From a virus (taxonomy: Duplodnaviria; Heunggongvirae; Uroviricota; Caudoviricetes), in the IMG/VR virus record IMGVR_UViG_2563366840_000011, positions 12,067-76,066 of that record: DNA of 64,000 nt. One strand, given 5' to 3'. The notes under the pieces are model-generated. The model saw only the letters and a program-made list of their open reading frames with translations. It ran no database searches and had not been told where the DNA came from. A program made the position numbers and the translations under genes. Position 1 is the stretch's first letter, and every line of letters begins with the position of its first letter. This document shows positions 28,881 to 64,000 of the stretch, in pieces.

Positions 28881-29221
28881 CCTTTTTCAGTGAAAATCTC
28901 GCCAAGCGGTGTCTGGCTGTTATTAATCGCCCAGTCAGCCCCGCTCTCTTTCGCTTTTTCCAGTCGTTCATCAATGCGATCGGCAACAATCACATTTTTA
29001 ACGTTATAGACGCCTTTTAATACCTGAACGATCGTCAGGCCGATTGGACCGGCACCATAAACCAGAACGGTATCATTTTCAGTCGGTTGACCATGTCCGG
29101 TTACGTTAGCCGCAATGGTAAAAGGTTCGATCATTACCGCATATTGATCGGCCACTGCTTCAGGAATTTTCCACGCATTTTTTGCCGGAACCACGGCATA
29201 TTCACTGAAACCACCGTCAGC
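28881..29221 (-). pseudogene. rspB: Internal fragment of rspB-like zinc-dependent alcohol dehydrogenase gene, cut by the Mu-like prophage upstream and IS1 downstream
   Basis: Minus-strand frame DGGFSEYAVVPAKNAWKIPEAVADQYAVMIEPFTIAANVTGHGQPTENDTVLVYGAGPIGL...EIFTEKG runs into the IS1 end; continues the reading frame of the fragment at 63661-64000. Confidence 0.8.
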
Positions 29222-29400
29222 TGTGGGGAGGTGATCGTTTCTGCACTGTGAAGAATCTAGGGAAAAATGCCGGGAAGGCCGATGAATAGAGAGATTGCGT
29301 GGATTCTGTGATTTTGCACTGCAAAAAATAAAATGAGAAAAAATAGCTATTTTTGCGTTTAATTCTGCACTCGAATGAAAGGCTTTAGATCCTTTTTAAA
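29222..29400 (+). repeat. Mu-like left end with repeated candidate transposase-binding motifs
   Basis: GTTTCTGCACTGTGAAG, TTTTGCACTGCAAAAAA and TTCTGCACTCGAATGAAAG within the first ~170 bp; the same TTTTGCACTG-type motif recurs inverted at the right end. Confidence 0.6.
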
Positions 29401-29484
29401 GACCGTTTAAGCATTTTTCGATGCCAAGCACTATACCGTATAGTAGGTTGGTATGTAAGAAGTTGGCTTCAAAATCCATTTCGC

Positions 29485-30054
29485 TTAACCGGCCTTCTTG
29501 TCGTGACTTGTTAGGCCCGCTTCGGCTGTCTGTTGATCAGCCTCAGATGACCCTTTTTTCAGTTGCTCATTCAGCCTAAGCAAACGCTCTTTGTCTTCTA
29601 AGGGGAGATTCATCAGACTCATATCAACATCCTTAACGCTAGCCACAAGACCTACCATGCTGCGAGCGCCTTCCTTAAAGCAGTACTCTAATATTTTTTT
29701 CTGATCATCTGGTTCTAGACTGTCGAAAATCATGTTCCACGCGCATTTAGCAGGGTCTGCATATCCTCTGTGCGCTTCATCAACAGCGATGATGCGATTC
29801 AAATTAGAATCAGCCTCATGCCCAAATGCCAGCCAGTCCAACGTGACATGCTCTTTCGCTGCGATGGCTTGCATGGCAATGAAGGATGGTTCTGTTCCCC
29901 TGCTAAGGTAGTTGTTCAATGTCGAGAATGATAACCCCCAATCTTTTGCCGCAGCCCTTACACTGCGAGTGCCTACGAGAGCTTTTAGTCTCTTGATAAA
30001 GTTTTCTTTTCTCTCTTCATCAAAAGCAAATTCGTTTGCTTTACGGTATCCCAT
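29485..30054 (-). CDS. Prophage repressor (Mu c analog, HTH)
   Basis: 189-aa ORF MGYRKANEFAFDEERKENFIKRLKALVGTRSVRAAAKDWGLSFSTLNNYLSRGTEPS... with HTH-like segment; divergent from ner-A-B. Confidence 0.7.
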   Translation of the reverse strand: MGYRKANEFAFDEERKENFIKRLKALVGTRSVRAAAKDWGLSFSTLNNYLSRGTEPSFIAMQAIAAKEHVTLDWLAFGHEADSNLNRIIAVDEAHRGYADPAKCAWNMIFDSLEPDDQKKILEYCFKEGARSMVGLVASVKDVDMSLMNLPLEDKERLLRLNEQLKKGSSEADQQTAEAGLTSHDKKAG

Positions 30055-30237
30055 TTTCTTTCCTGTTTAACATATTGATTATAAAAGAATTGATTTCAAT
30101 TAGATTCAATCAACCACAAAAAGACAAAAGAAAGAGGTCTTTTTTGCTTTACGTGGTGCAAATTTGGATCAATACTTATCCCAACGGATAACCCCTGCGG
30201 ATTATCCGCCCGGTTAACTTTTTAGGGTAATCGAAGT
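30055..30237. promoter_or_regulatory. Divergent promoter/operator region between repressor and ner
   Basis: AT-rich; repeated TTGATT/TGATTTCAAT/GATTCAATCA motifs and palindrome CGGATAACCCCTGCGGATTATCCG. Confidence 0.5.
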
Positions 30238-30465
30238 ATGGAAAGAAATGAAGTACAGCGTGACTGGCATCGCATTGATATTGTCGCCGAGCTGCACAAG
30301 CGTGGCGTCACTATGCGCGGCCTTTCCGCCAGCGCGGGACTAAAACCCGACACGCTGAAAAATGCGCTGGCACGCTCTTATCCAAAAGGAGAGCGCATTA
30401 TTGCAAATGCTCTCAATTTAGAACCCGCCAGTATCTGGCCAAGCCGTTACAACAAGGACCTGTGA
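30238..30465 (+). CDS. Ner-like DNA-binding protein
   Basis: 75-aa ORF MERNEVQRDWHRIDIVAELHKRGVTMRGLSASAGLKPDTLKNALARSYPKGERIIANALNLEPASIWPSRY; Mu Ner/Nlp-like pattern. Confidence 0.85.
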   Translation: MERNEVQRDWHRIDIVAELHKRGVTMRGLSASAGLKPDTLKNALARSYPKGERIIANALNLEPASIWPSRYNKDL

Positions 30466-30466
30466 C

Positions 30467-32524
30467 ATGTTCGTGACTGTTAACGAATTAGTTGGCGTCC
30501 CTGGATTGCCAACAACACAACAAGGACTGCGATACAGTCTTAAAAAAAGTGCAGGCAACTCCCCTGAACTGGTTCGCAAGCGTGCTGGCAGCAAAGCATT
30601 CGAGTACCACATCGACTGCCTTCCTGAACAGGCGCGTGAAATAGTCAAAGCCCGGCATTATCGGGAGGTGTTGAAACAGTCTGATTGCTCACCCGCTCCA
30701 GCGGCACCAAAGCGGGAAGTCACCACGACCCGTGATGAGCTGGCGTTATTACGGCAGTGCCCGGTATTGCTGGAGCGTGAAGTTTCCGACCTTACCGAAC
30801 GCCAGAAACAGATCGCCGATGCGCGTGCATTATTAGCCGCAGAGGTTGAGCGCCTTCGGGATATCGGTATGTCTCGCGCATCGGCGGTTGAGTTCATCGC
30901 CAAAGAGTCACGCAAGGGTTCACTCCCGGAGAACATCCAGGCTGCGGCTGATATTGCCAATGCCCGTAAAGGCTCCAGCCGCCGTGGCGTGGGGGAAAGA
31001 ACACTCCAGGAATGGCTGTCTGTTTACCTTTCAACCCGCCCTGGTATCGAACGCCTTGCTTTACTGGCCCCAGGCCATCTTAAAGCGCGTAAGCCTGAAC
31101 AGATTAAGTGGCTCCCTGATTTTCTTGCTCACTGGCGGAAACTCTCAGGCCCTTCCCTGGTTGATGCGTGGCGTTCATTCAAGACTGAATGGCAGGCTAT
31201 CTATGCGGGACAGCCAGCGATGCTCGCAGTCTGCCCGTCTTATGATGCCGTTCGCCGTGCGATGGAAAAGTTGCCCAAACGTGAACGCGCTCGCGGCCGT
31301 ATCAGCGGTTCAGCGGCTCTGGCCTTTGAGGTTTACCAGAAACGTGACTGGTCACAGATGCCTGTAAATGGTTGCTGGATTGCGGATGGTAAATCGCTGG
31401 ATATGAAAGTTGCTCATCCGGTCCATGGCCGCCCATTCACGCCCGAACTGACGCTGGTGATTGATGGACGAACCCGCTTCCTGGTGGGCTGGAGCCTGGC
31501 GCTCTCGGAGAACGTCATCGCCGTAGCGGATGCCTATCGCTACGCCATGAAATTCCACGGGAAACCTCTTTTTGTTTATTCGGATAACGGTGGCGGCGAA
31601 ACGAACAAAACGCTGGATGCTGATATCACCGGTATTTTCACCCGCATGGGGATTGATCACCCGACCAGTATTCCTGGCCGACCTCAGTCTCGCGGGATTA
31701 TCGAACGCCTGAACGCCGTAATACCGAGAGCGATCGCCAACAAATTTGATACTTACAACGGATTCGGGGCCGACCGTGAGCATGTCCGGATGACCGGTCG
31801 CGCCATCCAGTCAGCGATTAAGGCTCAGGAGAATGGCCGCGAGCTCACGAGCGTACAGCGTAATGCGCTGCGTAAACTGCCGTCATGGCAGATGCTGCTG
31901 GATACCATTGCCGAGGAAGTCGACAAATACAACAACCTGCATGAGCACAGCGAGTTACCGAAGCGTAATGGTGTTCATATGACGCCAGCACAGTACCGTC
32001 GCGAGGTCCTGGCCACTGAGGGTGACGAGATTGAATATCTGACGGATATCGAACTTCGTGAAGCCTTCATGCCGGAAATGTGCCGTACGGCCCAGAGAGG
32101 CTGGATTGACCTGATGAACAACCAGTATTTCAGCGCTGACCTGATACAGGTCGATGGTGAAGAGGTTCGTGTTGCCTATGACATTCACGACCCTGCCGCC
32201 GTCATCGTTCGCCGTATGGACGGTACTTATGTCTGCACCGCCATCTGGAACGGCAACAAGCGTGCCGCGCTGCCAACCAGCATGATGGATATCGCCGTTG
32301 AGAAACGCCGCCAACGTCGTCTGAAGCGCATTGACGAACAGCGAGAAGAGATTGAAGCAGAGGCGCGAGGACTGCTGCCAGAAAGCGATATGTACCCTGA
32401 TTTCGGCGCATTAATACCATCAGATGCCGAGCGTATTAATGATGACCGGGAACACGTGTTCCTGTTCGAGTCAGAGCGAGAAGAGTGGCTGAAAAGTCAG
32501 GGCAATAAAAAAGCGGCCTTCTGA
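30467..32524 (+). CDS. Mu-type DDE transposase (MuA-like)
   Basis: 685-aa ORF; DDE-core-like segments ...IADGKSLD..., ...VYSDNGGGETN..., ...GRPQSRGIIERLN...; directly follows ner. Confidence 0.9.
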   Translation: MFVTVNELVGVPGLPTTQQGLRYSLKKSAGNSPELVRKRAGSKAFEYHIDCLPEQAREIVKARHYREVLKQSDCSPAPAAPKREVTTTRDELALLRQCPVLLEREVSDLTERQKQIADARALLAAEVERLRDIGMSRASAVEFIAKESRKGSLPENIQAAADIANARKGSSRRGVGERTLQEWLSVYLSTRPGIERLALLAPGHLKARKPEQIKWLPDFLAHWRKLSGPSLVDAWRSFKTEWQAIYAGQPAMLAVCPSYDAVRRAMEKLPKRERARGRISGSAALAFEVYQKRDWSQMPVNGCWIADGKSLDMKVAHPVHGRPFTPELTLVIDGRTRFLVGWSLALSENVIAVADAYRYAMKFHGKPLFVYSDNGGGETNKTLDADITGIFTRMGIDHPTSIPGRPQSRGIIERLNAVIPRAIANKFDTYNGFGADREHVRMTGRAIQSAIKAQENGRELTSVQRNALRKLPSWQMLLDTIAEEVDKYNNLHEHSELPKRNGVHMTPAQYRREVLATEGDEIEYLTDIELREAFMPEMCRTAQRGWIDLMNNQYFSADLIQVDGEEVRVAYDIHDPAAVIVRRMDGTYVCTAIWNGNKRAALPTSMMDIAVEKRRQRRLKRIDEQREEIEAEARGLLPESDMYPDFGALIPSDAERINDDREHVFLFESEREEWLKSQGNKKAAF

Positions 32525-32569: not shown

Positions 32570-33463
32570 ATGTCAGCTAAAAATGAACTTGTCGAACTGA
32601 TGAAAGCAAAAGGTCTTAACCAGACGCAGGTCGCCCGCGCTATTGGTAAGAGCTCTGCCGTAATCAGCCAGTACCTGAATAATAAATACGACGGCGATAT
32701 TGCATCGCTGGAAAACGATATTCGTAGCTTTATCGATCGTCAGCATGAAAAAGAGCGCTCGGCACGTATCAGCGTCAAATTTGTTGATACCCCAACAACG
32801 CGCAAAGCCGTTGATGTTATACGCATGGCGCACGTCGAAGGTGATATCAACGTGCTTTACGGCGAAGCCGGTCTGGGCAAGACGATGATTTGCAAAGCCT
32901 ACGTCTCTAAATACCGGGATGCGTTGCTGATTGAGGCCGACCCTGGCTACACCGCACGCGTAATCCTGGAAGAACTCTGCAACCTGCTGGGGCTCAGTAC
33001 CCGCGGCAATATGCATGAACTTAGCGAAGCCTGCATCAACAAGCTGCGCGACTCCGGGCGCGTGCTGATTATTGATGAAGCTGAGAACCTCCCTCTGCGT
33101 GCGCTGGAATCTATCCGCCGCATTCATGACAAAACGGGGATCGGCATCGTCCTGGTTGGTATGCCTCGCCTGATTCTGAACCTCAAGGGCAAACGCGGTG
33201 AGCTCGTACAGCTCTATAGCCGTGTCGGTTTCGCCCTCAACCTCGGGCATAGCCTGCCGGGTGCTGATATTGACGTCATCGCCAGCAGCGTTCTCCCGGA
33301 TGGCCTGAATGAAGACCTGAGCAAAGCGCTGTTCAACGCATCAAAAGGTAATGCCCGCCGACTGTTCAAGCTACTGCGCGGTGCAGTTCGTACCAGTGCA
33401 ATGAATGATGTTCCGGTCAGCGGTCATATCGTCAATCAGATAGCCGAAATGCTGATCCATTAA
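32570..33463 (+). CDS. Transposition ATPase (MuB-like, AAA+)
   Basis: 297-aa ORF with N-terminal HTH-like region and Walker A GEAGLGKT, Walker B LIIDEAE. Confidence 0.88.
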   Translation: MSAKNELVELMKAKGLNQTQVARAIGKSSAVISQYLNNKYDGDIASLENDIRSFIDRQHEKERSARISVKFVDTPTTRKAVDVIRMAHVEGDINVLYGEAGLGKTMICKAYVSKYRDALLIEADPGYTARVILEELCNLLGLSTRGNMHELSEACINKLRDSGRVLIIDEAENLPLRALESIRRIHDKTGIGIVLVGMPRLILNLKGKRGELVQLYSRVGFALNLGHSLPGADIDVIASSVLPDGLNEDLSKALFNASKGNARRLFKLLRGAVRTSAMNDVPVSGHIVNQIAEMLIH

Positions 33464-33483: not shown

Positions 33484-33762
33484 ATGCTGACTTTAACATC
33501 AGATAACACGCTGGTTTCAGCGCTGTATCGTACCGAAGCTGTTGTCGTTTCCCTCCAGGCTCGTGGCGTGGAAGTGAAAGGCATCGTGGTTCGGGAAGGT
33601 CAGCCGGTCATTCGTATTCAGCGCCATGCCATGTGTGATTACCTGCTCACCAGCGGTAAAGCCAGCTACATCGAATATGGCCAGGGGAAATCGGGTAAAT
33701 ACCGCCAGGGCCTTTTCATCCAGGACGGCTGTCGTGTCGTCTGGTCAGAATCTATTCATTGA
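33484..33762 (+). CDS. Hypothetical early protein
   Basis: 92-aa ORF directly after B; no recognised motif. Confidence 0.45.
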   Translation: MLTLTSDNTLVSALYRTEAVVVSLQARGVEVKGIVVREGQPVIRIQRHAMCDYLLTSGKASYIEYGQGKSGKYRQGLFIQDGCRVVWSESIH

Positions 33763-33774
33763 AGGAGAAAATAA

Positions 33775-33966
33775 GTGGCAAAAGTCGTAATCAGCATAAC
33801 CGATGCACCGCGCGGCATCAGTGTGGAGTGCCAGGTTTTTCCAGATGAAAAAGACAGTGAACTGACCCAGAAGGTCGCAGCCACTGTGGGGTATGGCCTG
33901 GCTGGCCATGTTAACGAAAAAATCCGTAATGCAATCCAGAAAAAGGGGAAGTCCAATGTCCACTGA
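33775..33966 (+). CDS. Hypothetical early protein
   Basis: 63-aa ORF MAKVVISITDAPRGISVECQVFPDEKDSELTQKVAATVGYGLAGHVNEKIRNAIQKKGKSNVH. Confidence 0.4.
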   Translation: MAKVVISITDAPRGISVECQVFPDEKDSELTQKVAATVGYGLAGHVNEKIRNAIQKKGKSNVH

Positions 33967-34606
33967 AAACACCATCAAACAATACACTACCACCCAGGCT
34001 CCAGAGGGATACTGGACTGATGCTCGCGGCGTTCTGACGCCAGTCAGTCTGATTAAAGAAATCGACCGCGATCGCGACCAGCTCGTTGGCGAACTTGTTG
34101 AGCAGGCGATTGTCGTTTCCTCTGCTCTGAGTGAGCTGAAATCACGCGCCTTTGCTGATATTCAGGCGTTTATCGACCTTTCGGCTGAAAAATACGGGGC
34201 CACCAAAGGCGGTAAAAAAGGTAATGTCACGCTCTACAGCTTTGATGGCCGTTTCAAAATCCAGCGAGCCATGCAGGACAGAATTGCCCTGGACGAGCGT
34301 ATACAGACTGCAAAGGCGCTTATTGATACCTGTCTTGCTGACTGGACAGAAGGTGCCCGCCCGGAGCTGAAGGCGCTGGTCAATGAGGCGTTTGATACTG
34401 ACAAAGAAGGCAATATCAATACCGGGCGCGTTCTGGCACTTCGTCGCCTGGAAATTGATGATGAACGCTGGCAGCAAGCCATGCAGGCAATCGGTGAAGC
34501 GGTGCAGGTCGTCGGTAGCCGTTCTTATATCCGCGTGTATGAACGTGTTGGTGACTCGGATGAATATCGTCCGATTGCTCTCGATATTGCCGGTGCGGGG
34601 GTGTGA
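33956..34606 (+). CDS. Hypothetical early protein (resembles a conserved Mu-like prophage family of unknown function)
   Basis: ATG at 33956 after AAAAGGGGAAG; MSTENTIKQYTTTQAPEGYWTDARGVLTPVSLIKEIDRDRDQLVGELVEQ... 216 aa. Confidence 0.55.
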   Translation: MSTENTIKQYTTTQAPEGYWTDARGVLTPVSLIKEIDRDRDQLVGELVEQAIVVSSALSELKSRAFADIQAFIDLSAEKYGATKGGKKGNVTLYSFDGRFKIQRAMQDRIALDERIQTAKALIDTCLADWTEGARPELKALVNEAFDTDKEGNINTGRVLALRRLEIDDERWQQAMQAIGEAVQVVGSRSYIRVYERVGDSDEYRPIALDIAGAGV

Positions 34607-34607
34607 T

Positions 34608-34841
34608 ATGTATGTTCTGGTAGATCGCACCCATGCCCGTAAACCATGCAGTCCATTTATGTCTTATGCAGTCAGCGCTGTACTTGCTGAGCAAGTTGGC
34701 GATTTTCATAACGCTGCAACAGCCTGGAAAACTGCATTCAGCCTGGCGAAAACAGAGGTCAATTCTATCTGGGCAATATCGCGAATGGAGTTCTGTCTTC
34801 ATGCGGCGAATCGTGGTTGGGGGATTCCGAATGAAAGCTAA
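34608..34841 (+). CDS. Hypothetical early protein
   Basis: ATG at 34608: MYVLVDRTHARKPCSPFMSYAVSAVLAEQVGDFHNAATAWKTAFSLAKTEVNS... Confidence 0.45.
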   Translation: MYVLVDRTHARKPCSPFMSYAVSAVLAEQVGDFHNAATAWKTAFSLAKTEVNSIWAISRMEFCLHAANRGWGIPNES

Positions 34842-35022
34842 AGAGTTCAATCTGCGATACCCGGTTGGCAGCGTCTTTATTTATCAGCCAAATCCGGTTT
34901 TACGTGGCGGTAAGGTCGTCAGCACCGTTGACCAGGCTCGTGACTGCCGCGATGTATCGGTAGTTGAAATAAATCAAGAACCTTATTTCGCCAATATTAA
35001 ATCGCTGATACCAGCTAGCTGA
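34831..35022 (+). CDS. Hypothetical early protein
   Basis: ATG at 34831: MKAKEFNLRYPVGSVFIYQPNPVLRGGKVVSTVDQARDCRDVSVVEINQEPYFANIKSLIPAS. Confidence 0.4.
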   Translation: MKAKEFNLRYPVGSVFIYQPNPVLRGGKVVSTVDQARDCRDVSVVEINQEPYFANIKSLIPAS

Positions 35023-35102
35023 AATAACTTTTAATTAAACCTGTTTTAAATATGGCGTAAACCCGCCGGGGCTGGCTTACGCCTGAATTAAGGAGTTCTG
35101 TA

Positions 35103-35825
35103 ATGGAAAATAAAGAGAAATATCTCCAGCGTATTAAAAAACTGCTGGCAATGGCGCGTAATAACTCCAGCGCTGAAGAAGCAGCACTCGCGCTGAGCCG
35201 CGCCCAGCGCCTGATGGAAACCCACAAACTGACTGAAGCCGATGCGGCGATGATGGATATCAACGAGGCATCCACTCAGAAAGCCCCATCACATGCTGAA
35301 AAGATGCCTGAATATATGGCGCTACTGGCTCATATGATAGCGCTGGCATTCGGGGTTAAGTTCTATACCACCCACGGTCATGAGCGCTGGGATGCTCCAG
35401 CAAAACGCACCATCACCTATTACGGACCGGACGAACGTCCGCAGGTTGCAGCTTATTCCTTCGAGGTTCTTGGCAAGCAGCTGGCGAAGGCCCGTCGTGA
35501 ATACACCGCCACGTTGCGTAAAAATATCAAACCCGCCACCAAGGTGGCTCGTGCCGATACGTTCTGCTCTGCCTGGGTGAATGGTGCCTATGCCGTTATC
35601 AGTGACTTTGCCGTCACTGAGGCCGAAGAGACTCTCATGGAGAGCTATCGCAGCAAAAAACTGAGTCAGGGCATGAAGAAACTGGAGCCTCGTAAACCGG
35701 GAAAAGCCAGCGGCACCGATGATGCAGCTAATCAGGGTTATCGGGCTGGCCGCAATGCGCAGTTACATCATGCTGTGACGGGGTCTTCAAATGCTGTAGC
35801 TCGAATTGAAGGGGGACCTCAATGA
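35103..35825 (+). CDS. Early protein of unknown function (N-terminal region resembles DUF2786-type domain)
   Basis: 240-aa ORF MENKEKYLQRIKKLLAMARNNSSAEEAALALSRAQRLMETHKLTEADAAMMD... Confidence 0.5.
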   Translation: MENKEKYLQRIKKLLAMARNNSSAEEAALALSRAQRLMETHKLTEADAAMMDINEASTQKAPSHAEKMPEYMALLAHMIALAFGVKFYTTHGHERWDAPAKRTITYYGPDERPQVAAYSFEVLGKQLAKARREYTATLRKNIKPATKVARADTFCSAWVNGAYAVISDFAVTEAEETLMESYRSKKLSQGMKKLEPRKPGKASGTDDAANQGYRAGRNAQLHHAVTGSSNAVARIEGGPQ

Positions 35826-36325
35826 GAGATATCACCGCACTGGCGCAACACCTAAGAGTGTATGCCGAAGAATTCAGTTATCCGGTTCTATCTCCTGATG
35901 ATTGCAAAACGCTGGTAGATGCGCTGGAAGCAGGACAACCACACCACAACGGCCTGATGCAGCTCTCTAATGAACTGGTGATGGCTAAGCAGAGAATCGC
36001 AGAACTGGAGTCCGGCACAGCCACCGCGTCGCAGAGCGATTACTTTGCCTCTCTGGTAGCAATGGCTCGTGTTTCAGCAGAAAAAGCGATGCGGAAGTTC
36101 CCTCAGCCGAACTACGTGCTTCTTAAGGTTGCGGAGGAAGCTGGCGAGGTCGTGCAGGCCGGGGTCCATTACGCAGAGAAACGGATGGAGTGGCAGCAGG
36201 TAGAGGGCGAGATTGTCCAGCTGTTGGCAATGCTGATTCGCCTGGTGACGGAGGGCGACCAGATTAATGGCATCACTCCTCCGGCCGATGGCATCCAGGT
36301 TATCGAAGGGGATAATTATGACTGA
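35822..36325 (+). CDS. Candidate MazG-like nucleotide pyrophosphohydrolase-domain protein
   Basis: 167-aa ORF; C-terminal half ...NYVLLKVAEEAGEVVQAGVHYAEKRMEWQQVEGEIVQLLAMLIRL shows an EExGE ... E-x-E pattern resembling MazG/HisE-type motifs (second motif divergent). Confidence 0.4.
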   Translation: MRDITALAQHLRVYAEEFSYPVLSPDDCKTLVDALEAGQPHHNGLMQLSNELVMAKQRIAELESGTATASQSDYFASLVAMARVSAEKAMRKFPQPNYVLLKVAEEAGEVVQAGVHYAEKRMEWQQVEGEIVQLLAMLIRLVTEGDQINGITPPADGIQVIEGDNYD

Positions 36326-36683
36326 ACAACAGCGCAAGCCGGTGGTATTCATCGCCGGGCCGATGACCGGGTATCAGGATTATAACCGGGCAGAGTTCGA
36401 CGCTGAGGCTAGTGTCCTGTCCGATCGAGGCTTCACCGTACTAAATCCGGCGATACTTCCAGATGGCCTTGAGCACCAGCAATATCTGGCAATTACGCTG
36501 GCGATGCTGGAGCAGGCTGATGCGGTATTCCTGCTGAACGGGTGGGAAAAGAGTACCGGCGCTACCAGGGAGTTTGATCGTGCCTGTGAACTAGGGCTGC
36601 TGTTCCTTTACCAGGACTGGGAAAGCGTGTCTGTTGCGATCCACCGTAAGCGTCACCCATTAACGGAGGTGAGTTATGCATAG
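36318..36683 (+). CDS. Candidate nucleoside 2-deoxyribosyltransferase-like (Rossmann-like) protein
   Basis: ATG at 36318: MTEQQRKPVVFIAGPMTGYQDYNRAEFDAEASVLSDRGFTVLNPAILPDG...ADAVFLLNGWEKSTGATREFDRACELGL; VFIAGP start and late conserved Glu resemble NDT/Rcl-like fold proteins. Confidence 0.45.
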   Translation: MTEQQRKPVVFIAGPMTGYQDYNRAEFDAEASVLSDRGFTVLNPAILPDGLEHQQYLAITLAMLEQADAVFLLNGWEKSTGATREFDRACELGLLFLYQDWESVSVAIHRKRHPLTEVSYA

Positions 36684-36891
36684 CGTAACGGGTTGCCAGT
36701 TTCAGGACAACGGAAACCGCCGAATCTGGTTCTTCCGCGATAACAGCCAGGTTGTCGAGTTGTTGGCGGTGCCACTTAAGCTGCGGTTCAACTATTACGA
36801 CGCGAACAACCGTACAGTTCGCAATAAGGGTACTCAGGCTGATATGAAAAAGGCGATTGAATCTTTCAAGAAACTTCGGGGGATAAAGTGA
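36676..36891 (+). CDS. Hypothetical early protein
   Basis: 71-aa ORF MHSVTGCQFQDNGNRRIWFFRDNSQVVELLAVPLKLRFNYYDANNRTVRNKGTQADMKKAIESFKKLRGIK. Confidence 0.4.
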   Translation: MHSVTGCQFQDNGNRRIWFFRDNSQVVELLAVPLKLRFNYYDANNRTVRNKGTQADMKKAIESFKKLRGIK

Positions 36892-37278: not shown

Positions 37279-37293
37279 AAGTAAGTCATTACA

Positions 37294-37317: not shown

Positions 37318-37345
37318 GATAATGACAACCAACAGGAGAAATATT

Positions 37346-52471: not shown

Positions 52472-52484
52472 GGAGTAAACCATA

Positions 52485-56856: not shown

Positions 56857-58057
56857 AGATTCGCAGAATACAGTGAGCCTGGTTATTGATGGCAAAATCC
56901 ACAGTGCATGGAGCCGCTATCAGATTGACTCCGATTTTCTTATCCCCTCCGATGCCTGGAGTGTAACGCTTGGGCTGCCTGATGGTATTTTCCCTCCGGC
57001 CATTAAACGTGGTGTGCCGGTGCTGGTCAGGGTGGGTAATGATGTTGTCATGTCCGGTCGGGTGGATGTGGTTCAGCGCCGGGTATCCCGTCAGCAGGTT
57101 TCTTTATCTCTTTCCGGTCGCGATGGTGCAGCCGTGCTTGTTGACTGCGCTTCACCCGTTTTTACCTCCCGCCAGCTCAGTCTTGAAGAGGTGATCGCCC
57201 AGGTTGTCAGACCGCTGGGGATAACGAACATCCGCATCGAGGCTGAATCATCCCTGCGTAATGACAAGGTCAGCGTGGAGCCCGGAGAACGTGCGTGGGA
57301 TACCCTTGAGCGTGCAGCTGCTGCACGCGGGTTATGGCCATGGTTTGAGCCAGATGGCACGCTGGTAATTGGAGGGCCGGATTACACAAAAGACCCTGTA
57401 GCCACGCTTGTTCTGAATCGTGACGGTCGGGGAAATAATGTCCTCGATCTCAGTGACCGGTCATCCATTACCGGTGCGTTCTCTGAACTGACAATGCTGG
57501 CACAGGGACACGGCCAGGGGAAAAAGTCAGGAAGACTGGAAGTTATTGACGTTGATGATCAGAGCGCTGAGGCTGAAGACGATGATGATGCCGACGCAAT
57601 TTATGACAGCACCGGCTCTGCAGAGAATGGCTTTCATGGCTTACGTAGTACCGTTCGCGACAGTACCGTACCTTTCTATCGTCCGCAGATTATGGTTGCT
57701 GGTGATGCTGATAATCAGGCGCAGGTTGATTATCGCGCGAGAAAGGCCATGGCTGACGCCCGTCTGAACGGGTTTGATCTGACAGTAATTGTTAAAGGCC
57801 ATCGCATGGAGAACGGTCAGTTATGGCAACCGGGCCAGCGTATTCGTGTCCGAAGCGAGCCGCATGGCATTGATGACATTTACTTCCTCATGGGAAGAGA
57901 GTTTTCAGGTGGTCGTCCAGACAACACCATTACCACCCTGCGGCTCAAAGAGGATGGAATATGGATACCGGATGCTTATCCGAAAAAACGCAAATCACGT
58001 AAGCGTCGCGCCAAAGTAAATAAAGAGCTGGAGATTATCGATGTGGAACAAAATTGA
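56840..58057 (+). CDS. Tail/baseplate hub protein (Mu P-like)
   Basis: 405-aa ORF MPTQDKDSQNTVSLVIDGKIHSAWSRYQIDSDFLIPSDAWSVTLGLPDG... Confidence 0.8.
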   Translation: MPTQDKDSQNTVSLVIDGKIHSAWSRYQIDSDFLIPSDAWSVTLGLPDGIFPPAIKRGVPVLVRVGNDVVMSGRVDVVQRRVSRQQVSLSLSGRDGAAVLVDCASPVFTSRQLSLEEVIAQVVRPLGITNIRIEAESSLRNDKVSVEPGERAWDTLERAAAARGLWPWFEPDGTLVIGGPDYTKDPVATLVLNRDGRGNNVLDLSDRSSITGAFSELTMLAQGHGQGKKSGRLEVIDVDDQSAEAEDDDDADAIYDSTGSAENGFHGLRSTVRDSTVPFYRPQIMVAGDADNQAQVDYRARKAMADARLNGFDLTVIVKGHRMENGQLWQPGQRIRVRSEPHGIDDIYFLMGREFSGGRPDNTITTLRLKEDGIWIPDAYPKKRKSRKRRAKVNKELEIIDVEQN

Positions 58058-58646
58058 CTCTCGTATTAACACGGCGTTAAACCGTATCAGAAAGGCCTTC
58101 AGGGGCGTTTTAATAAGGGTTAACAGCGGCGGTGATATTCAGACCATTCAGGGTAAAGGTCTGGCCACTGAGTCTCTGCAGGATGTGGAGATGTTTCAGC
58201 AGTACGGTTTTACATCCAACCCGCCCAGGGGGACTAAAGCCATTGTGCTCCCGCTTAACGGGCGCACCAGTCATAGCGTGGTGATTGCCACGGAACACGC
58301 TGCATACAGGCTAAAGAGCCTGAAAAGTGGTGAGCTTGCCATTTATTCGGATGAAGGAAGCAACATTATTCTGAAGCGCGGAAAAATAATTGAAGTAAAC
58401 TGCGATGAATATATAGTTAATACTAAAAAGCACACGGTGAATACCGAACAACATATTGTTAATACCAAAACGTATAAAACCACAGCCTCAGAGCGGGCAG
58501 ATTTTGATACACCATTGCTGAAAGGCAGTAATGAAGTCGCTGACGGCAAGTCTACGCTGAACACCATGCGTGAGACTTATGACGGTCACGACCACGACCA
58601 CGGCGGTGATGCAGGCACAACGCAGAAACCTAATCAGCAAATGTAA
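58041..58646 (+). CDS. Baseplate spike/assembly protein (Mu gp45-like) with short tandem peptide repeats
   Basis: 201-aa ORF; repeats YIVNTKKHTVNTEQHIVNTKTY; His/Asp-rich C-terminus GHDHDHGGD. Confidence 0.7.
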   Translation: MWNKIDSRINTALNRIRKAFRGVLIRVNSGGDIQTIQGKGLATESLQDVEMFQQYGFTSNPPRGTKAIVLPLNGRTSHSVVIATEHAAYRLKSLKSGELAIYSDEGSNIILKRGKIIEVNCDEYIVNTKKHTVNTEQHIVNTKTYKTTASERADFDTPLLKGSNEVADGKSTLNTMRETYDGHDHDHGGDAGTTQKPNQQM

Positions 58647-58682
58647 TTTGTGGTAACGTAAGTTCTCCTTCAAAAGCAATAC

Positions 58683-58700
58683 CCACTGAACCCCTTCACC
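58683..58700 (+). promoter_or_regulatory. Conserved late box, copy 3 (upstream of gp46-like baseplate gene), candidate late promoter/activator site
   Basis: CCACTGAACCCCTTCACC, immediately followed by GATAAT, then 10-bp perfect inverted repeat TTCCATGCCG/CGGCATGGAA (58713-58741) containing the first ATG. Confidence 0.55.
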
Positions 58701-58735
58701 GATAATTTAAATTTCCATGCCGGTAGTATTACGGC

Positions 58736-59086
58736 ATGGAAATGTTGATTGATCCAACGACCGGCGATTATACCGGCGACAGCTCAGACTCTTTAGCGAA
58801 TGCCGTCTACTTACGGCTGATGACGCCCCTTGGCTCATGGTGGGCTGATCCAACTCTGGGCTCTCTTTTGCATACACTCCGCCGCGAAAAGGATGTGTCT
58901 CGCGTTCAACAACTCGCGGTGCAGTATTCGCGGCAGGCCCTGCAACCGATTATTGACGACGGTCGCGCCCAGTCCATTTCCGTTACTGCAGAGCACTGGC
59001 AAAAAGGCTGGATGCTGCTTCATATCACCGTCACGTCTGCGAGCGGAACGCCGCAGACCTGGAAATATCCGGTTAAGGTCAGCTGA
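58736..59086 (+). CDS. Baseplate protein (Mu gp46-like)
   Basis: 116-aa ORF MEMLIDPTTGDYTGDSSDSLANAVYLRLMTPLGSWWADPTLGSLLHTL...; translation may start at the second ATG (58742). Confidence 0.7.
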   Translation: MEMLIDPTTGDYTGDSSDSLANAVYLRLMTPLGSWWADPTLGSLLHTLRREKDVSRVQQLAVQYSRQALQPIIDDGRAQSISVTAEHWQKGWMLLHITVTSASGTPQTWKYPVKVS

Positions 59087-60153
59087 TGCCATTCATTACC
59101 AAAAATGCCGCGCAAATACGCACTGACATTCTGCGGGATATCAAAAATCTCCTGCAGTTGTCAGATGATACGCTGGGCCCGGACAGCGACTGGTACATCC
59201 GGGCATCGAGTGTAGCCAGTGTTGCCGAGGGGCTTTATCAGCATCAGGGATGGATAGTCCGTCAGATCTTTCCGGATACTGCTGATTCGGAATTCCTCTA
59301 TCTGCACGCCCGTTTACGTGGTTTAAGCAAAAAAGCAGCCAATAGCGCCTCCGGGCCTGCCACGTTTACCGGCGAACCAGGAGCGGTGGCCGCTGCCGGT
59401 CTTGTGTTCAAACGCGACAGTGTTTCGTGGACAACAACCGAAGATATTATTGTCGGGTCAGATGGAAAATCATCGGTAAACGCAGTGTCTTCTCTGGCCG
59501 GAACCACTGGTAACACCACTTCCGTCACATCGGCCACACTGACCACAACACCTGATGGGTTTGACAGCACAGTGACAGTAGGCCTGATGACTGGCGGAAC
59601 AGATGAGGAAACGGATGCAGAGCTGCTTGCTCGTCTGCTTGAAATCATCCGCCGACCTCCTGCAGGCGGCAATAAATATGATTACAAACGCTGGGCGCTT
59701 GAGGTATCAGGCGTATCCGCCGCATATGTTTACCCTTTGCGGCGGGGGCCGGGTACCGTTGATGTTGTGATCACGTCTGCAGGTGGGCTGCCATCTCAGG
59801 ATGTGATCGACAGGGTGCAGGCTCACATTGACGATGTCCGGCCTGTTACAGCAAAAAACACGCTGGTGCTCATGCCTGTCATCCGTACATTTGACGTCCT
59901 CGTGAAGGTATCACTGGAGGGCATCACCCTCGCAGCAGCCAAACAGGCTGTCGCCGGAACGCTGGAGGACGATGACTCGCGCCGAGAGCCTGGAGTGGCT
60001 TTTATTCGCAGCCAGGCGGGGACATTGATTTCTCTAATTCCGGGTATTACCGACTATGACATCGTTACACCATCGGCAAATATTCAACCGATAATCGATG
60101 CCACGAAAGTCGAATGGCTCAGATTAGGAAACGTTGAGGTAGAGCTGCTATGA
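59086..60153 (+). CDS. Baseplate J-like protein (Mu gp47-like)
   Basis: 355-aa ORF MPFITKNAAQIRTDILRDIKNLLQLSDDTLGPDSDWYIRASSVASVAEGLYQHQGW... Confidence 0.8.
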   Translation: MPFITKNAAQIRTDILRDIKNLLQLSDDTLGPDSDWYIRASSVASVAEGLYQHQGWIVRQIFPDTADSEFLYLHARLRGLSKKAANSASGPATFTGEPGAVAAAGLVFKRDSVSWTTTEDIIVGSDGKSSVNAVSSLAGTTGNTTSVTSATLTTTPDGFDSTVTVGLMTGGTDEETDAELLARLLEIIRRPPAGGNKYDYKRWALEVSGVSAAYVYPLRRGPGTVDVVITSAGGLPSQDVIDRVQAHIDDVRPVTAKNTLVLMPVIRTFDVLVKVSLEGITLAAAKQAVAGTLEDDDSRREPGVAFIRSQAGTLISLIPGITDYDIVTPSANIQPIIDATKVEWLRLGNVEVELL

Positions 60154-60722
60154 GCTACTTCACGCTGTTAAATCGTCTGCTGCCACTTGTTTCGTACAGC
60201 CCGGGCCAGCCTCTGCTTGATGCATCATTGCGATCTGAATCAGGTGTTTTTGAGACTCTCGATGCGTCTGCAGGGCTTGTTGAAGGTGGAGTTACTCCAT
60301 TTTATGCACGCAGCCTTTTGTATGACTGGGAACGCGTCCTGGACCTTACTCCTGCTGAAGGTGCGACATACCAGCAACGCCAGCAGCGTGTACTGGCTAA
60401 ACTGGCTGAAGTCGGTGGTCTCAGTATTCCGTACTTTACTCAGTTGGCAAGCAACCTTGGCTACATCATCACAATTGATGAACCGCAACCTTTCAGGGCG
60501 GGAGTTGGCCGCGCCGGTGATCGCCTCTGGGTTGAAGACATTATCTGGGTCTGGCGCGTCAATATTCAGAACTCAGGAACTCAATCCTATCGCTTTCGCT
60601 CAGGCAGTTCAGCTGCAGGTGAGCGCCTGACAACGTTTGGTGATCCGATTATTGAAGACGTCTTCCGTGATCTCAAACCAGCCCATACATTTTGCTACTT
60701 CGCATATCAGGAGAATGAATAA
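60150..60722 (+). CDS. Tail/baseplate protein (Mu gp48-like)
   Basis: 190-aa [69 protein letters not shown]... Confidence 0.75.
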
Positions 60723-61366
60723 TGCGGCCCTTAATGCCACCGGTGCAGACGCCGGATAATCTTTTCCATGATGGTAATCCGCTCACAGGTGAGCTGGGGA
60801 CCATTGTTGATGCTGAGCATCTGAATAACGTGCAGGGAGCTGTCAGAGATGCGCAGTCGGAGCTTATTACTGTCCTGAACGCTGCCGGTATTAATGTTGA
60901 TCCTTCTAAACAAAACCAGTTATTAACAGCATTAAAAGCGCTGTTACTGAGTCGCTCAAATCCGTTTGGCGATATCAAATCGGATGGCACCGTGAAAACG
61001 GCTCTCGAAAATCTTGGTTTGGGAGAAGCGGCTAAAAGGAATGTAGGGACAGGGGCGAATCAGATACCTGATATGGGTAGCTTCACGCTTTCTGTTTCAG
61101 ATACTGGATATCAAAAATTACCATCAGGTTTTATTCTTCAGTGGGGCTCAATCGGCGCTCCAGGCATTGCACAGGATGTAGTAACCCATTTCCCGATTGC
61201 ATTTCCAAACAGATGTCTGCGTGTTTTGGTCTCACAAGACTACACACCAGATAGCGGGGCTGTTGGTTATATTGCCTGTGCAGGTTTTAGTCCCGACCCG
61301 GTTAAATTTATATCCAGAGCCAGTACTCCTGGCCTCGGCGCTTCATTTTTAGCGTTAGGCTGTTAA
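60722..61366 (+). CDS. Tail fibre protein (constant N-terminus plus currently expressed variable part)
   Basis: 214-aa [44 protein letters not shown]...; followed by fibre assembly gene; an alternative fibre C-terminus is encoded inverted downstream. Confidence 0.8.
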
Positions 61367-61387
61367 TTTAGCTATATGGAGTGAAAA

Positions 61388-61828
61388 ATGAATTACATAT
61401 ATTCCGCGACTACAAACTCTTTCTATCCGCTGGAGATGAAAGAGGATTACACTCAAGCTGACTCATGGCCAGATGATGCTGTTGAAGTTGATGAGCAAGT
61501 GTATATTGAGTTTTCCGGATTACCGCCGAAAGGAAAAATCCGTATCGCTGGAGAAAATGGTTTTCCTGCATGGTCTGAAATTCCACCACCAACATATGAG
61601 GAACAGATTGCTGCAGCCGAACTGGAAAAGCAGCAACTGATTAATCAGGCCAACGAATACATGAACAGTAAGCAATGGCCCGGTAAAGCCGCTATTGGTC
61701 GTCTGAATGGTGAGGAACTGGCGCAATATAATTTGTGGCTGGATTATCTGGATGCACTGGAGCTGGTTGATACTTCCGGTGCGCCAGATATTGAATGGCC
61801 TACGCCTCCGGCAGTTCAGGCCAGATGA
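61388..61828 (+). CDS. Tail fibre assembly protein (Mu U-like)
   Basis: 146-aa ORF MNYIYSATTNSFYPLEMKEDYTQADSWPDDAVEVDEQVYIEFSGLPPKGK... Confidence 0.8.
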   Translation: MNYIYSATTNSFYPLEMKEDYTQADSWPDDAVEVDEQVYIEFSGLPPKGKIRIAGENGFPAWSEIPPPTYEEQIAAAELEKQQLINQANEYMNSKQWPGKAAIGRLNGEELAQYNLWLDYLDALELVDTSGAPDIEWPTPPAVQAR

Positions 61829-62411
61829 CATCCGGCGCGGTGCTGGTATCTGTTGCCGTCACCGCGTCAATGTAATCCAGCACAGCGTTAAGGCGGGTTG
61901 TTTCTGCCTGCGTCAGTTTACGTCCGGCCTGCAATTTCAGCTGAATCAGACTGATGGAGGCCATTGCAGTATCAATCAGCGACTGGCGCTGTGCTTCTGC
62001 TGCATCTACTGCTGCGCCGTGCTGTGCCTCGGTATCCGTCACCCATTTCTCACCATCCCATTTATCGTATGGGGTTAACGGGGCGATAGTGGTTGTATTA
62101 TCAGGGTAATCACCCGGAGCTGTGATTTCTTTTGATTCCCCTGTTTCGGTGCTAAAAACGATTTCACCGCGATGGTCTGGCATATATTCCCATGATTTTA
62201 AATCTGCTGAACGGCAGATAGTATAACCAGCCTTATATGTACCAGGAGCATCTAAACAGGAATACGCCGGAATACCGACGCCGACAGCGAGATATTCAGT
62301 TGATGTAGAAATATATTCCCGCGTTTCTCCGTTGTAGTTGTAAACGGTAATAAAGCCAGCTTCCGTGGCAAATCCGTTTTCATCCAAAGTGATTTTTTTT
62401 GTGGTCATCAT
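61800..62411 (-). CDS. Alternative tail fibre assembly protein (U'-like), inverted orientation
   Basis: 203-aa minus-strand ORF MMTTKKITLDENGFATEAGFITVYNYNGETREYISTSTEYLAVG...; convergent with the plus-strand assembly gene. Confidence 0.75.
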   Translation of the reverse strand: MMTTKKITLDENGFATEAGFITVYNYNGETREYISTSTEYLAVGVGIPAYSCLDAPGTYKAGYTICRSADLKSWEYMPDHRGEIVFSTETGESKEITAPGDYPDNTTTIAPLTPYDKWDGEKWVTDTEAQHGAAVDAAEAQRQSLIDTAMASISLIQLKLQAGRKLTQAETTRLNAVLDYIDAVTATDTSTAPDVIWPELPEA

Positions 62412-62956
62412 GATGCCCTTACAATGTAGTTAAATGCAATGTTACGTGGTCGGTTTTCTTCCGCAGTTGGTACAACTCTGGCGGCGGAAAAACCTACGTC
62501 ATACCTATTACCGGGCGATGAGGTTGTTTGACCAGCGCCGCCTTCGTATACAGCATTAAATGGCCCTGTTACCCACTCGTCTGCTGTCCTCTGGCTTCCC
62601 GCAGTGGTCATAAGTCCCAAGAGCTTCCCTGATATGTCCCTTATAGCATCACCTTGTGCGGACAGCAGCGCTCGCCCTGAATCGACCCCACGCCCGTCAT
62701 CCCAGCCACGAATAAACTCACCACGTAAATCTGGCAATTTATTTGTCGGATAAACTTTTGCCAGTTCCGGATACTCTTCGGCAGAAAAAGGTGCACCATT
62801 GCATTTCAGCCAGCCTGTTGGCGGAGTGGCTGAAGGCCACGGAACAGGCACGCCAACGGGTAATGCCGAACCTTCTCCCAAACCAACCTTTTGTGGATTG
62901 AGATTTTTAATGTCAGCGAAGCTCTTCGTCAAAAGTGAAACTCTGATAACCTGGTT
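62408..62956 (-). CDS. Alternative tail fibre variable C-terminal segment (Sv'-like) lacking its own start
   Basis: Minus-strand frame open from the stop at 62957-62959: NQVIRVSLLTKSFADIKNLNPQKVGLGEGSALPVGVPVPWPSATPPTGWLKCNGAPFSAEEYPELAKVYP...; no ATG or SD at its 5' end. Confidence 0.65.
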   Translation of the reverse strand, partial: NQVIRVSLLTKSFADIKNLNPQKVGLGEGSALPVGVPVPWPSATPPTGWLKCNGAPFSAEEYPELAKVYPTNKLPDLRGEFIRGWDDGRGVDSGRALLSAQGDAIRDISGKLLGLMTTAGSQRTADEWVTGPFNAVYEGGAGQTTSSPGNRYDVGFSAARVVPTAEENRPRNIAFNYIVRAS

Positions 62957-62993
62957 CTACTGACGAACAGAAGGATAAGCAGGAGATCGCTTT

Positions 62994-63554
62994 ATGATTA
63001 TTGGGTATGCACGAGTATCAAGTAACCATCAGGACACCGAGCTTCAGATGCAGGCGCTCAGAGCTGCTGGCTGTAAGTTAATTTTTGAGGAAAAGGCTTC
63101 TGGCCGTAAGACGAACCGACCAATTTTGAAGAAAGTGGTTGAGATGCTTGAACCCGGTGACGAGCTGGTCATCTGGAAGCTGGATCGTATCGGTCGCAAT
63201 GTGCTGCACGCATTATTGACGTTTCAGAGCCTCGCAGAACGCAATGTTAACATCCGTTCTATTACTGATGGCGTTGACCTGAGTACCGCCAGTGGGCGCT
63301 ATAACTTCCGTAATATTCTCTCTGCGGCACAATATGAGTCTGATCTGAATAGTGAACGCACTTTGGCGGGGTTAGCGGTTGCCCGCGCTAAGGGGAGGAT
63401 TGGCGGACGTAAGCCTAAGTTCACTAATGAGCACTGGGATGCGTTTGAACGGGAAATTAAGTCCGGCTGCTCACATCGTGATATAGCTCTCAAATATGGA
63501 GTCGGCCTGTCGACTCTCTACAAACGTTATCCGGCTCAGCAAGAGCATCAGTAA
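62994..63554 (+). CDS. gin: Serine DNA invertase (Gin/Pin/Hin family)
   Basis: 186-aa ORF MIIGYARVSSNHQDTELQMQALRAAGCKLIFEEKASGRKTNRPILKKVVEMLEPGDELVIWKLDRIGRN... resolvase-type catalytic domain plus C-terminal HTH; last gene before the right end. Confidence 0.9.
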   Translation: MIIGYARVSSNHQDTELQMQALRAAGCKLIFEEKASGRKTNRPILKKVVEMLEPGDELVIWKLDRIGRNVLHALLTFQSLAERNVNIRSITDGVDLSTASGRYNFRNILSAAQYESDLNSERTLAGLAVARAKGRIGGRKPKFTNEHWDAFEREIKSGCSHRDIALKYGVGLSTLYKRYPAQQEHQ

Positions 63555-63559
63555 ACACT

Positions 63560-63660
63560 CTTTGCGTTCATTTTTGCACTGTGCAGAATGTGTCTTTTTG
63601 GCACCTTCCGACAGTGCAAAATTTATCGCGTTTTTGTGCAAAAAAAATCGCCGCGCTACA
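63560..63660 (+). repeat. Mu-like right end with inverted copies of the terminal TTTTGCAC(T)G motif
   Basis: TTTTTGCACTGTGCAG, CAGTGCAAAAT and TTTTTGTGCAAAAAAAATCG within the last 100 bp; element ends ...CGCGCTACA. Confidence 0.6.
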
Positions 63661-64000
63661 CAGCGTGCACACCTAATACAGCCAGTGTCGTACAAACGTT
63701 CGGTTTACCTATAGAGCACGGATAGCAATGCCCACAGCTGACCACCGGATCGACAGCAACACGTTCACCGACTCTGGCGCTTTCCACGCCTTCACCCACT
63801 GCATCAATGACGCCAAAGAATTCATGACCAATGACGCGCGGATATTTCGCAAAAGGATTATGCCCACGATAAATATGGCTATCTGAACCACAAATTCCGG
63901 CAAGTTTCACTTTTACTCGTACTTCACCCGCTGACGGGGTGGGTATTTCACGTTCGACAATCGCCAGTTGATTCGGTTTTTCAATTAATATGCTTTTCAT
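63661..64000 (-). pseudogene. rspB: 5' fragment of rspB-like zinc-dependent alcohol dehydrogenase gene (codons 1 to ~113), interrupted by the Mu-like prophage
   Basis: Minus-strand ORF from ATG at 63998-64000: MKSILIEKPNQLAIVEREIPTPSAGEVRVKVKLAGICGSDSHIYRG...CSIGKPNVCTTLAVLGVHA, then V-stop from prophage-end sequence; frame continues at 29217 with DGGFSEYA... Confidence 0.8.

Follow-up and report, generated by a model that had tools for sequence, protein, structure and literature searches.

The 64,000-nucleotide stretch of DNA analysed here (positions 12,067 to 76,066 of the IMG/VR virus record IMGVR_UViG_2563366840_000011; hereafter the window) contains a Mu-like prophage of 34,439 bp, located at 29222-63660 within the rspB gene of Escherichia coli and flanked by a perfect 4-bp repeat, CAGC. 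The 4-bp duplication is a regular property of the transposase lineage of this element, which includes the prophage Sp18 of E. coli O157:H7 Sakai, and not a damaged 5-bp repeat. Very probably, a temperate transposable myovirus, which looks complete, inserted itself into rspB by DDE transposition, the 4-bp stagger being a property of the lineage. The prophage in rspB is itself an ordinary and widespread one and such gene disruption is routine; the main point is the 4-bp repeat, which is genuine, extends over the lineage and has been little noticed. In the literature, 5 bp is regarded as characteristic of Mu and Mu-like phages (PMC11406979, PMC8705779): the duplication is 5 bp for DMS3 (PMC11406979), while 5 bp for Mu and 6 bp for B3 are given together with a "5/6 bp duplication" as the recognisable scar for finding transposable prophages (PMC8705779). 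The lineage of the element departs from this hallmark of 5 bp (Mu and the D3112 group) or 6 bp (the B3 group).

Both junctions were read directly. On the plus strand, the left junction is ...ACCACCGTCAGC/TGTGGGGAGG, the slash marking the joint (in another read, the element side is TGTGGGGAGGTGATCG), and the element starts at 29222. The right junction is ...CGCCGCGCTACA/CAGCGTGCAC, in another read ...AAAATCGCCGCGCTACA/CAGCGTGCACACC, and the element ends at 63660, so that it has the form 5'-TG...CA-3'. The CAGC copies occupy 29218-29221 on the left and 63661-63664 on the right; the span 29218-63664 given in an earlier note on this DNA comprises the element and both copies. The repeat at rspB is exactly 4 bp long, the adjacent bases differing on both sides (TCAGC vs ACAGC, CAGCT vs CAGCG). 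The features at the insertion site are the following.

28881-29221, minus strand: middle fragment of rspB, whose last 4 bp (29218-29221) are the left CAGC copy
29222-63660, plus strand: transposable prophage, 5'-TGTGGGGAGG...GCGCTACA-3'; termini read directly, flanks of other copies diverging there
63661-64000, minus strand: 5' fragment of rspB, with the start codon at the window end; 63661-63664 is the right CAGC copy

When 28881-29221 and 63665-64000 are joined with one CAGC kept, a minus-strand open reading frame (ORF) runs uninterrupted over the joint (...LGVHADGGFSEYAV...). The 677-nt rejoined rspB is 100% identical, in a single aligned piece, to the intact annotated rspB of E. coli genomes, the search having found 4,922 E. 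coli genomes that cover at least 80% of the rejoined sequence. This full match shows that neither flank has acquired a mutation. In other genomes, the sequence flanking the element changes exactly at the equivalents of window positions 29222 and 63660. The gene set, the junctions and the match to intact rspB thus bear out the earlier note in its view that a Mu-like transposable prophage interrupts rspB, that the two fragments read continuously across the insertion, and that the element starts with TG, ends with CA and carries CAGC on both flanks as a target duplication; the alignment to an uninterrupted rspB, which it had proposed as a check, leaves the junctions in place.

Other insertions were compared, provided that both of their ends were available, by matching the last k bases of the left flank to an equal number of bases at the start of the right flank. 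Paired ends came from an end pattern written in International Union of Pure and Applied Chemistry (IUPAC) code, run over species-representative genomes and metagenome contigs, and from exact-protein look-ups. The conserved terminal stretch of about 24 bp in the relatives is TGTGGGGAGGTGATCGTTTNTGCA at the left end and, read inward, TGTAGCGCGGCGATTTTTTTTGCA at the right. In the species-representative genomes a loose version of the pattern yielded mostly chance matches and one true pair, a tighter IUPAC pattern over metagenomes yielded five pairs, and the end-pattern scan of viral contigs yielded none. The look-ups with the invertase and the gp48-like protein mostly returned ends on different contigs, with one new pair (loci L004/L014). 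Since the empty site of this last pair was found neither among the fetched loci nor in E. coli genomes, its host is probably another genus. All ten independent paired insertions agree at k=4 and none of them at k=5. Their duplications are listed below.

Window, rspB: CAGC
GCA_013637135.1, ends 34,966 bp apart on one contig: CCGT
Plasmid pMCR10_2641_2: AAAC
NZ_SZPQ01000001.1: AAAG
OLJQ01000010.1: GGCC
SKEG01000615.1: CGTC
OBBQ01000018.1: AAAT
OKPX01000001.1: GCCT
PPYE01643497.1: CTGC
Two contigs of assembly OKCK01: TAAC

The ten elements cover several sub-groups, which differ in their left-end and immunity regions and whose transposases go down to about 63% identity (the NZ_SZPQ01 contig). The duplications GGCC and AAAT belong to metagenome elements that share their left-end variant with a Klebsiella genome. 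Both Sp18-type insertions (2/2) give 4 bp as well. Sp18 in Sakai is flanked by TAAA, and the sorM site with one TAAA is found in other O157:H7 genomes at 100% identity over 396 nt in a single piece. Mu_JNE122137 (GenBank LC727895.1), a relative of Sp18 situated inside Shiga toxin phages, is flanked by AGAG, for which the depositors entered two 4-bp repeat_region features labelled "duplication due to insertion of Mu_JNE122137". The earlier note had supposed that the 4-bp repeat implied a misplaced end or a mutated flank; with unmutated rspB flanks, ten of ten pairs and both Sp18 and Mu_JNE122137 at 4 bp, this supposition had to be given up. Beyond the surveyed insertions, we lean slightly towards the more general view that a clade of MuA-family transposases in Enterobacterales, made up of the element's family (Citrobacter to Providencia) and the Sp18 type, always staggers its target by 4 bp.

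The same termini are joined to 87 distinct flanking half-sites. No sequence requirement is visible within the 4 bp, and a C four bases outside the duplication is modestly preferred (44/87, chi-square p ~5e-5). G or C is favoured at the adjacent position and at the last duplicated base, and A or T about 9-10 bases out. These features fit a symmetric, weakly specific target, as expected of transposition. The window matches contig KB732923.1 of assembly GCA_000351905.1. The assembly collection lists the identical transposase protein in 396 blocks, and the ten places displayed represent ten genomic contexts. With 87 distinct half-sites and ten different contexts for the identical transposase, the insertions speak for transposition and not for site-specific integration. 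A homology search with the transposase returned 763 relatives at E <= 1e-10, many named in Enterobacterales species, among them Citrobacter freundii (96%), Cedecea (89%), Shigella sonnei, Enterobacter, Klebsiella and Serratia, and further Providencia, Yersinia, Pantoea, Erwinia and Photorhabdus.

The element ends carry repeated motifs. TTYTGCAC has 10 matches in the window, 7 of which lie within ~150 bp of the element ends, where ~0.03 would be expected from the window-wide expectation of 6.45. At the left end it is in direct orientation on the plus strand, starting at 29239, 29312 and 29363. At the right end it lies in the opposite orientation on the minus strand (63581-63588, 63614-63621 and 63636-63643) and once in the "left" orientation on the plus strand (63572-63579). 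In fuller form the site reads approximately GCGAT-N3-4-TTTTGCAC(T)G, and the candidate sites are as follows.

29222-29248, plus strand: left terminus with candidate site L1, GGTGATCGTTTCTGCACTG, at 29230-29248; invariant in 15 diverged left ends, motif match
29306-29321, plus strand: candidate site L2; motif, conservation
29355-29372, plus strand: candidate site L3, GCGTTTAATTCTGCACTC; motif, conservation
63564-63581, plus strand: candidate site R3, GCGTTCATTTTTGCACTG; inverted relative to R1 and R2, overlapping a partial site on the other strand
63612-63660, minus strand: right terminus with the adjacent candidate sites R2 (63612-63630, CGCGATAAATTTTGCACTG) and R1 (63634-63652, GGCGATTTTTTTTGCACAA); motif, conservation

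In an alignment of 15 left and 14 right ends, mutually more than 15% different, L1, L2, L3, R1, R2 and the R3 palindrome form islands of conservation within variable sequence. The termini TGTGGGG.../...GCGCTACA are invariant over the family of the element. Enrichment at the ends and conservation in diverged relatives make these motifs, which are inverted between the two ends, good candidates for transposase sites, in agreement with the earlier note. In Mu attL and attR, L1 lies at the tip, L2 and L3 lie ~80-130 bp in, R1 and R2 are adjacent and the third site is inverted; the layout of the candidate sites recalls this arrangement.

The transposase matches Pfam Mu-transpos_C at 57.4 bits (cut-off 21.7) and HTH_Tnp_Mu_1 at 30.1 bits (cut-off 23.3), both above the curated thresholds; HTH_Tnp_Mu_2 (PF09039, the I-gamma domain of MuA) gave no match in it. 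Its identity to MuA is 23% (E 1e-6). The putative catalytic residues D307, D373 and E413, taken from the MuA alignment, are invariant in 28 homologues of 60-96% identity, with a D-D-E spacing of 66/40 vs 67/56 in MuA. Since a sequence search against solved structures returned just weak integrase-core matches and the MuA N-terminal domain, recovering MuA required a comparison of folds. Foldseek with an AlphaFold model gave the Mu transpososome 4FCY as best match (E 1.2e-13), followed by TnsB of Tn7 and of CRISPR-associated transposons (CASTs), then the isolated MuA core (TM score ~0.5 on the target) and IstA. As modelled, the transposase is a distinct lineage within the MuA/TnsB structural family. 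Judged by sequence, its catalytic domain is unlike that of MuA, with a D-to-E spacing of 40 vs 56 residues and an rve-like core, and one may speculate that this difference sets the 4-bp stagger.

Among deposited phages, the closest transposases are those of the Klebsiella phages ST405-OXA48phi1.1 (68.5%) and Kp4852-3 (64%), both over 98% of the length. They are followed by Pseudomonas VW-6B (52%), Yersinia vB_YpM phages (43-45%) and Mu-like phages inside Shiga toxin (Stx) phages (44%), and, more distantly, by Mannheimia 3927AP2 and Haemophilus SuMu (41%) and the D3112 type (~30%). The Sakai Sp18 transposase has 45% identity over its full length, in an alignment of 648 amino acids, and the same Pfam pattern.

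We infer the chemistry of insertion, the binding of the transposase to the motifs, repression and the present activity of the rspB copy. The MuA-family transposase probably binds the conserved candidate sites L1-L3 and R1-R3 at both ends, and the adjacent MuB-like ATPase would assist by delivering target DNA. The 3'-OH of the terminal CA would be exposed at each end and attack the target strands 4 bp apart, and gap repair would leave the 4-bp CAGC duplication. The divergent left-end repressor presumably keeps the prophage silent.

Several points weigh against DDE transposition with a lineage-wide 4-bp stagger. For the transposase, the match to the Pfam rve core is sub-threshold (26 vs 32.6 bits), PF02914, the core family of MuA itself (453 bits for MuA), is not matched, and the AlphaFold model, built from the 28-homologue alignment, is of medium confidence, with a predicted local distance difference test (pLDDT) of 68.5 and a predicted template-modelling (pTM) score of 0.40. 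The duplication survey comprises 12 events (10 plus the 2 Sp18-type ones); the plasmid pair is oddly arranged (right end, 2.8 kb, left end) and one pair spans two contigs of one assembly. In three pairs the 4 bp of the right flank are followed by T, the first base of the element, and in one pair those of the left flank are preceded by A, its last base; since the neighbouring base equals the element end base, these four pairs taken alone permit a shifted 5-bp reading. Finally, the rspB copy may carry subtle inactivating mutations.

The alternative that survives best, although we consider it unlikely, is that the rspB copy is a dead, domesticated remnant, past transposing or forming particles. 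The neighbourhood is indeed decaying, rspB being truncated by the insertion sequence IS1 beside what is presumably a Qin-type cryptic remnant, and remnants of the element exist elsewhere, on a plasmid (a fragment bounded by IS26) and in P2-like prophages (a fossil right end). On the other hand, the plus-strand ORF series is unbroken and holds every expected function, both ends and the duplication are intact, and the transposase is protein-identical to that of copies in numerous other places, as would be expected had the lineage been mobile recently. A canonical 5-bp Mu duplication, with one flank mutated afterwards or the true ends one base off TG/CA, is very improbable. Such a length would agree with what is described as characteristic of Mu and Mu-like phages (PMC11406979, PMC8705779), and the base outside each CAGC does differ in the window, as a single mutation would give; but the flanks carry no mutated base relative to intact rspB, the termini are invariant in the family with flanks that diverge exactly at TG and CA, and the ten independent pairs and two Sp18-type events are all 4 bp, none 5. 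Finally, site-specific integration with rspB/CAGC as a preferred attachment site is hardly conceivable, for although one metagenome contig has the same rspB junction and the C four bases outside the duplication betrays a weak target bias, the flanks are of 87 different kinds, the 4-bp repeat differs at every paired insertion, and the only recombinase of the element is a Gin-type invertase by the invertible segment, no tyrosine or large serine integrase being present in it.

The genes of the transposable prophage follow the order of transposable phages, in an unbroken plus-strand ORF series in which the ORF list, Pfam and PHROG cover all expected functions. The prophage is complete-looking, with no sign of decay in its sequence. 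Its layout is as follows.

29485-30054, minus strand: repressor, CI-type helix-turn-helix, divergent from the early operon (Pfam Phage_CI_repr; PHROG 3037 transcriptional repressor, 8.8e-38)
30238-30465, plus strand: Ner-like small DNA-binding protein (Pfam HTH_35, 6e-28)
30467-32524, plus strand: MuA-family DDE transposase, 685 amino acids (Pfam Mu-transpos_C 1.5e-15, HTH_Tnp_Mu_1 7e-7; putative catalytic D307, D373, E413)
32570-33463, plus strand: MuB-like AAA+ ATPase, predicted target capture and activator protein (Pfam AAA_22 3.7e-23, TniB 5.8e-7)
33484-37300, plus strand: early accessory region with DUF3164, DUF2786/DUF7168, DUF4406 and small ORFs (Pfam, PHROG)
37310-38201, plus strand: GemA-like and Mor-like late-transcription activator genes (Pfam GemA; PHROG 836 late transcriptional activator)
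38786-40288, plus strand: lysis genes, glycoside hydrolase 19 endolysin and Rz-like spanin (Pfam, PHROG)
40687-46551, plus strand: packaging and head genes, DUF1804, large terminase, Mu portal, Mu F-like and virion morphogenesis (G-like) (Pfam, PHROG)
46552-46918, no strand: non-coding gap of 367 bp between the G-like and I-like genes (ORF list)
46919-49360, plus strand: Mu I-type protease/scaffold, virion protein and Mu T-type major head protein (Pfam, PHROG)
49360-60722, plus strand: head completion, contractile tail and baseplate, with gp36/37, sheath, tape measure, DNA-circularisation N and gp44-48 homologues (Pfam families on the same contig)
60722-61366, plus strand: tail-fibre gene, its variable 3' part within the invertible segment (PHROG)
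61008-62892, no strand: invertible segment, Mu G segment-like, with alternative fibre/assembly genes on both strands (21-nt inverted repeats)
62994-63554, plus strand: Gin-type serine invertase (Pfam Resolvase)

The head families are of Mu type (Portal_Mu 4.7e-97, Phage_Mu_F, Mu-like_Pro 2.4e-92 and Mu-like_gpT 2.8e-95). The inverted repeats at 61008-61028 and 62872-62892 are 21 nt long and 90% complementary and enclose a 1.9-kb segment; the ORFs of this region are 61388-61828 (plus strand), 61800-62411 and 62408-62932 (both minus strand). Since alternative fibre/assembly genes on opposite strands lie between inverted repeats, the segment can be regarded as the counterpart of the Mu G segment. 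As the element ends 106 bp past the invertase, a com/mom module is absent, and its 34,439 bp are slightly below the approximately 35-39 kb of transposable phages. The 367-bp gap at 46552-46918 lies almost exactly in the middle of the prophage. The annotation of Mu places a gyrase cut site between the G and I genes, and we infer, by analogy only, that the gap might correspond to the strong gyrase site of Mu.

To the left of the prophage, rspB has been struck a second time.

28113-28880, minus strand: IS1 replacing the 3' third of rspB (both inverted-repeat ends, InsA-like translation, Pfam IS1 families on the same contig)

The complete IS1 adjoins rspB at 28881, the last ~343 bp of the gene are gone and the DNA left of IS1 is not rspB. 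The IS1 event, with its adjacent deletion, is separate from the prophage insertion. Elsewhere within rspB, IS1 is also found in four other E. coli genomes. The genes further left of IS1 (relBE, hokD, flxA and a Q-like antiterminator) resemble a Qin-type cryptic prophage as on the K-12 map.

Other copies and remnants of the element were also recorded. At least four different repressor genes (189, 209, 210 and 211 amino acids) are found among copies whose transposase protein is identical, and some of these copies have an additional minus-strand gene of 171 amino acids before the terminase. Since these differing repressors and the 171-amino-acid gene stand beside an identical transposase, they indicate that immunity and accessory modules are swapped among copies. 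In finished E. coli genomes the element is rare: the left 4.3 kb, searched in 5,426 of them, had as sole match a remnant on plasmid pMCR10_2641_2 (NZ_JALDNN010000003.1, 16099-21425). There, the last 776 bp of the element lie, at 100% identity, in a 5.5-kb module bounded by IS26. Next come 2,834 bp of unrelated DNA (gstA, hydroxyacylglutathione hydrolase and a truncated transposase), and after these a left end of related sequence (81-89% identity), which includes repressor and ner; AAAC stands beside both ends. Since the right end precedes the left end with the same 4-bp repeat, the order points to a target that was either a small circle or a tandem duplication. The same type of IS26 module is also present in two metagenome contigs.

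Matches to the right end in complete E. coli genomes were considered as further copies and rejected, as they proved to be P2-like prophages, not Mu-like ones. Window 62905-63660, comprising the invertase and the complete right end, is found at ~96% in P2-like prophages of E. coli E41, MB51 and ET734 (NZ_CP069707.1 1007-1762; NZ_CP100922.1 40190-40943), and the similarity ends exactly at the terminal CA. The junction ...CCCCGCAGAT/TGTAGCGCGG was found again in metagenome and viral contigs. This looks like a fossil of a Mu-like phage that inserted upstream of the P2 tail-sheath gene and was later lost except for its fibre/invertase cassette.

The 4-bp duplication has already been noticed by the annotators of LC727895 and is stated otherwise in no searchable paper. 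The search covered the open-access literature, subscription papers lying outside it, and found no paper on a 4-bp duplication in Mu-like phages; the open-access literature on Sp18, SuMu, KS10, the O165 Stx phages and the Pseudomonas saltoviruses likewise gave none. Tools or curation that delimit Mu-like prophages or map insertions by a 5-bp overlap, for instance the split-read pipeline for mapping insertions of such phages (PMC11406979), will misplace the ends or overlook insertions of the lineage of the element. A 4-bp stagger in the MuA/TnsB structural family also offers a comparison with the solved Mu transpososome, 5 bp being reported for Mu and Tn7 and 6 bp for B3. If the whole clade indeed staggers by 4 bp, it would form an exception to the 5-bp (or 6-bp) scar rule of transposable phages and, with Mu at 5 bp and the Sp18 type at 4 bp, a natural pair of related transpososomes for studying what sets the stagger.

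Compared with known systems, the element is a transposable, Mu-like phage in the broad sense: it has the transposase, the adjacent MuB-like ATPase, TG...CA ends with candidate end repeats, near-random insertion and a Mu-type head. With Mu it shares the repressor, ner, A, B, early genes, Mor/C-type activators, lysis, head, contractile tail, invertible segment and invertase, the TG...CA ends, three candidate sites per end with L1 apart and R1/R2 adjacent, portal, F, I, T and baseplate proteins of Mu families, and a transposase fold best matched by 4FCY. Mu differs in its 5-bp duplication, the presence of mom and a transposase that is only 23% identical and carries PF02914 and HTH_Tnp_Mu_2, and the nucleotide sequences share just two short weak matches, ~180 nt together. 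The possibility that the element is Mu or D108 itself was rejected on the transposase identity to MuA, the absence of PF02914 and the near-nil nucleotide similarity, megablast having given no match to Mu; on these sequence grounds it is outside the genus Muvirus (Mu, D108, SfMu).

D3112/DMS3 (Casadabanvirus) and B3 are likewise transposable, with MuA-family transposases ~30% identical to that of the element and, in DMS3, a large terminase gene at ~72% nucleotide identity; they differ in being siphoviruses with duplications of 5 bp in DMS3 (PMC11406979) and 6 bp in B3 (PMC8705779). By megablast of its first 20 kb against 50,697 phage records, the element is close to no deposited phage: the terminase gene matched Pseudomonas DMS3/D3112-type phages at only ~72% identity, and two Klebsiella records were among the 60 weak matches listed (60-80% identity), none spanning most of the query. 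The Klebsiella phages ST405-OXA48phi1.1 and Kp4852-3 resemble it in their ~35-kb genomes and in transposases at 68.5% and 64%, yet they are different species-level phages, and their records include no host flanks from which a duplication might be read. TnsB of Tn7 and CASTs gives the second-best fold matches after MuA and also has an AAA+ partner, but TnsB proteins are not phage proteins, and their end sequences and target selection differ. TnsB transposases of Tn7 and CASTs make 5-bp duplications.

The nearest likeness in several respects is Sp18, which shares the gene order, the invertible fibre segment, the invertase and the 4-bp duplication. The transposases are alike, with Mu-transpos_C, HTH_Tnp_Mu_1, a weak rve match, no PF02914 and 45% identity, and the last ~13 bases of the Sp18 right end are near-identical to those of the element (...AAATCGCCGCGCTA-). 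Sp18 differs in its length of 38.8 kb (~4 kb longer), its com/mom-like genes and extra genes past the invertase, and no nucleotide-level similarity was found by megablast. The Sp18-type ends are TG...TA (...GCGCTATA) and those of the element TG...CA (loci L161 6093-45429, L162 471-39225), the internal repeats are TTTGATACC vs TTTTGCAC, and the left end differs as well. By its transposase sequence and duplication length, the element belongs with the Sp18-type prophages, a grouping of our own and not a named taxon.

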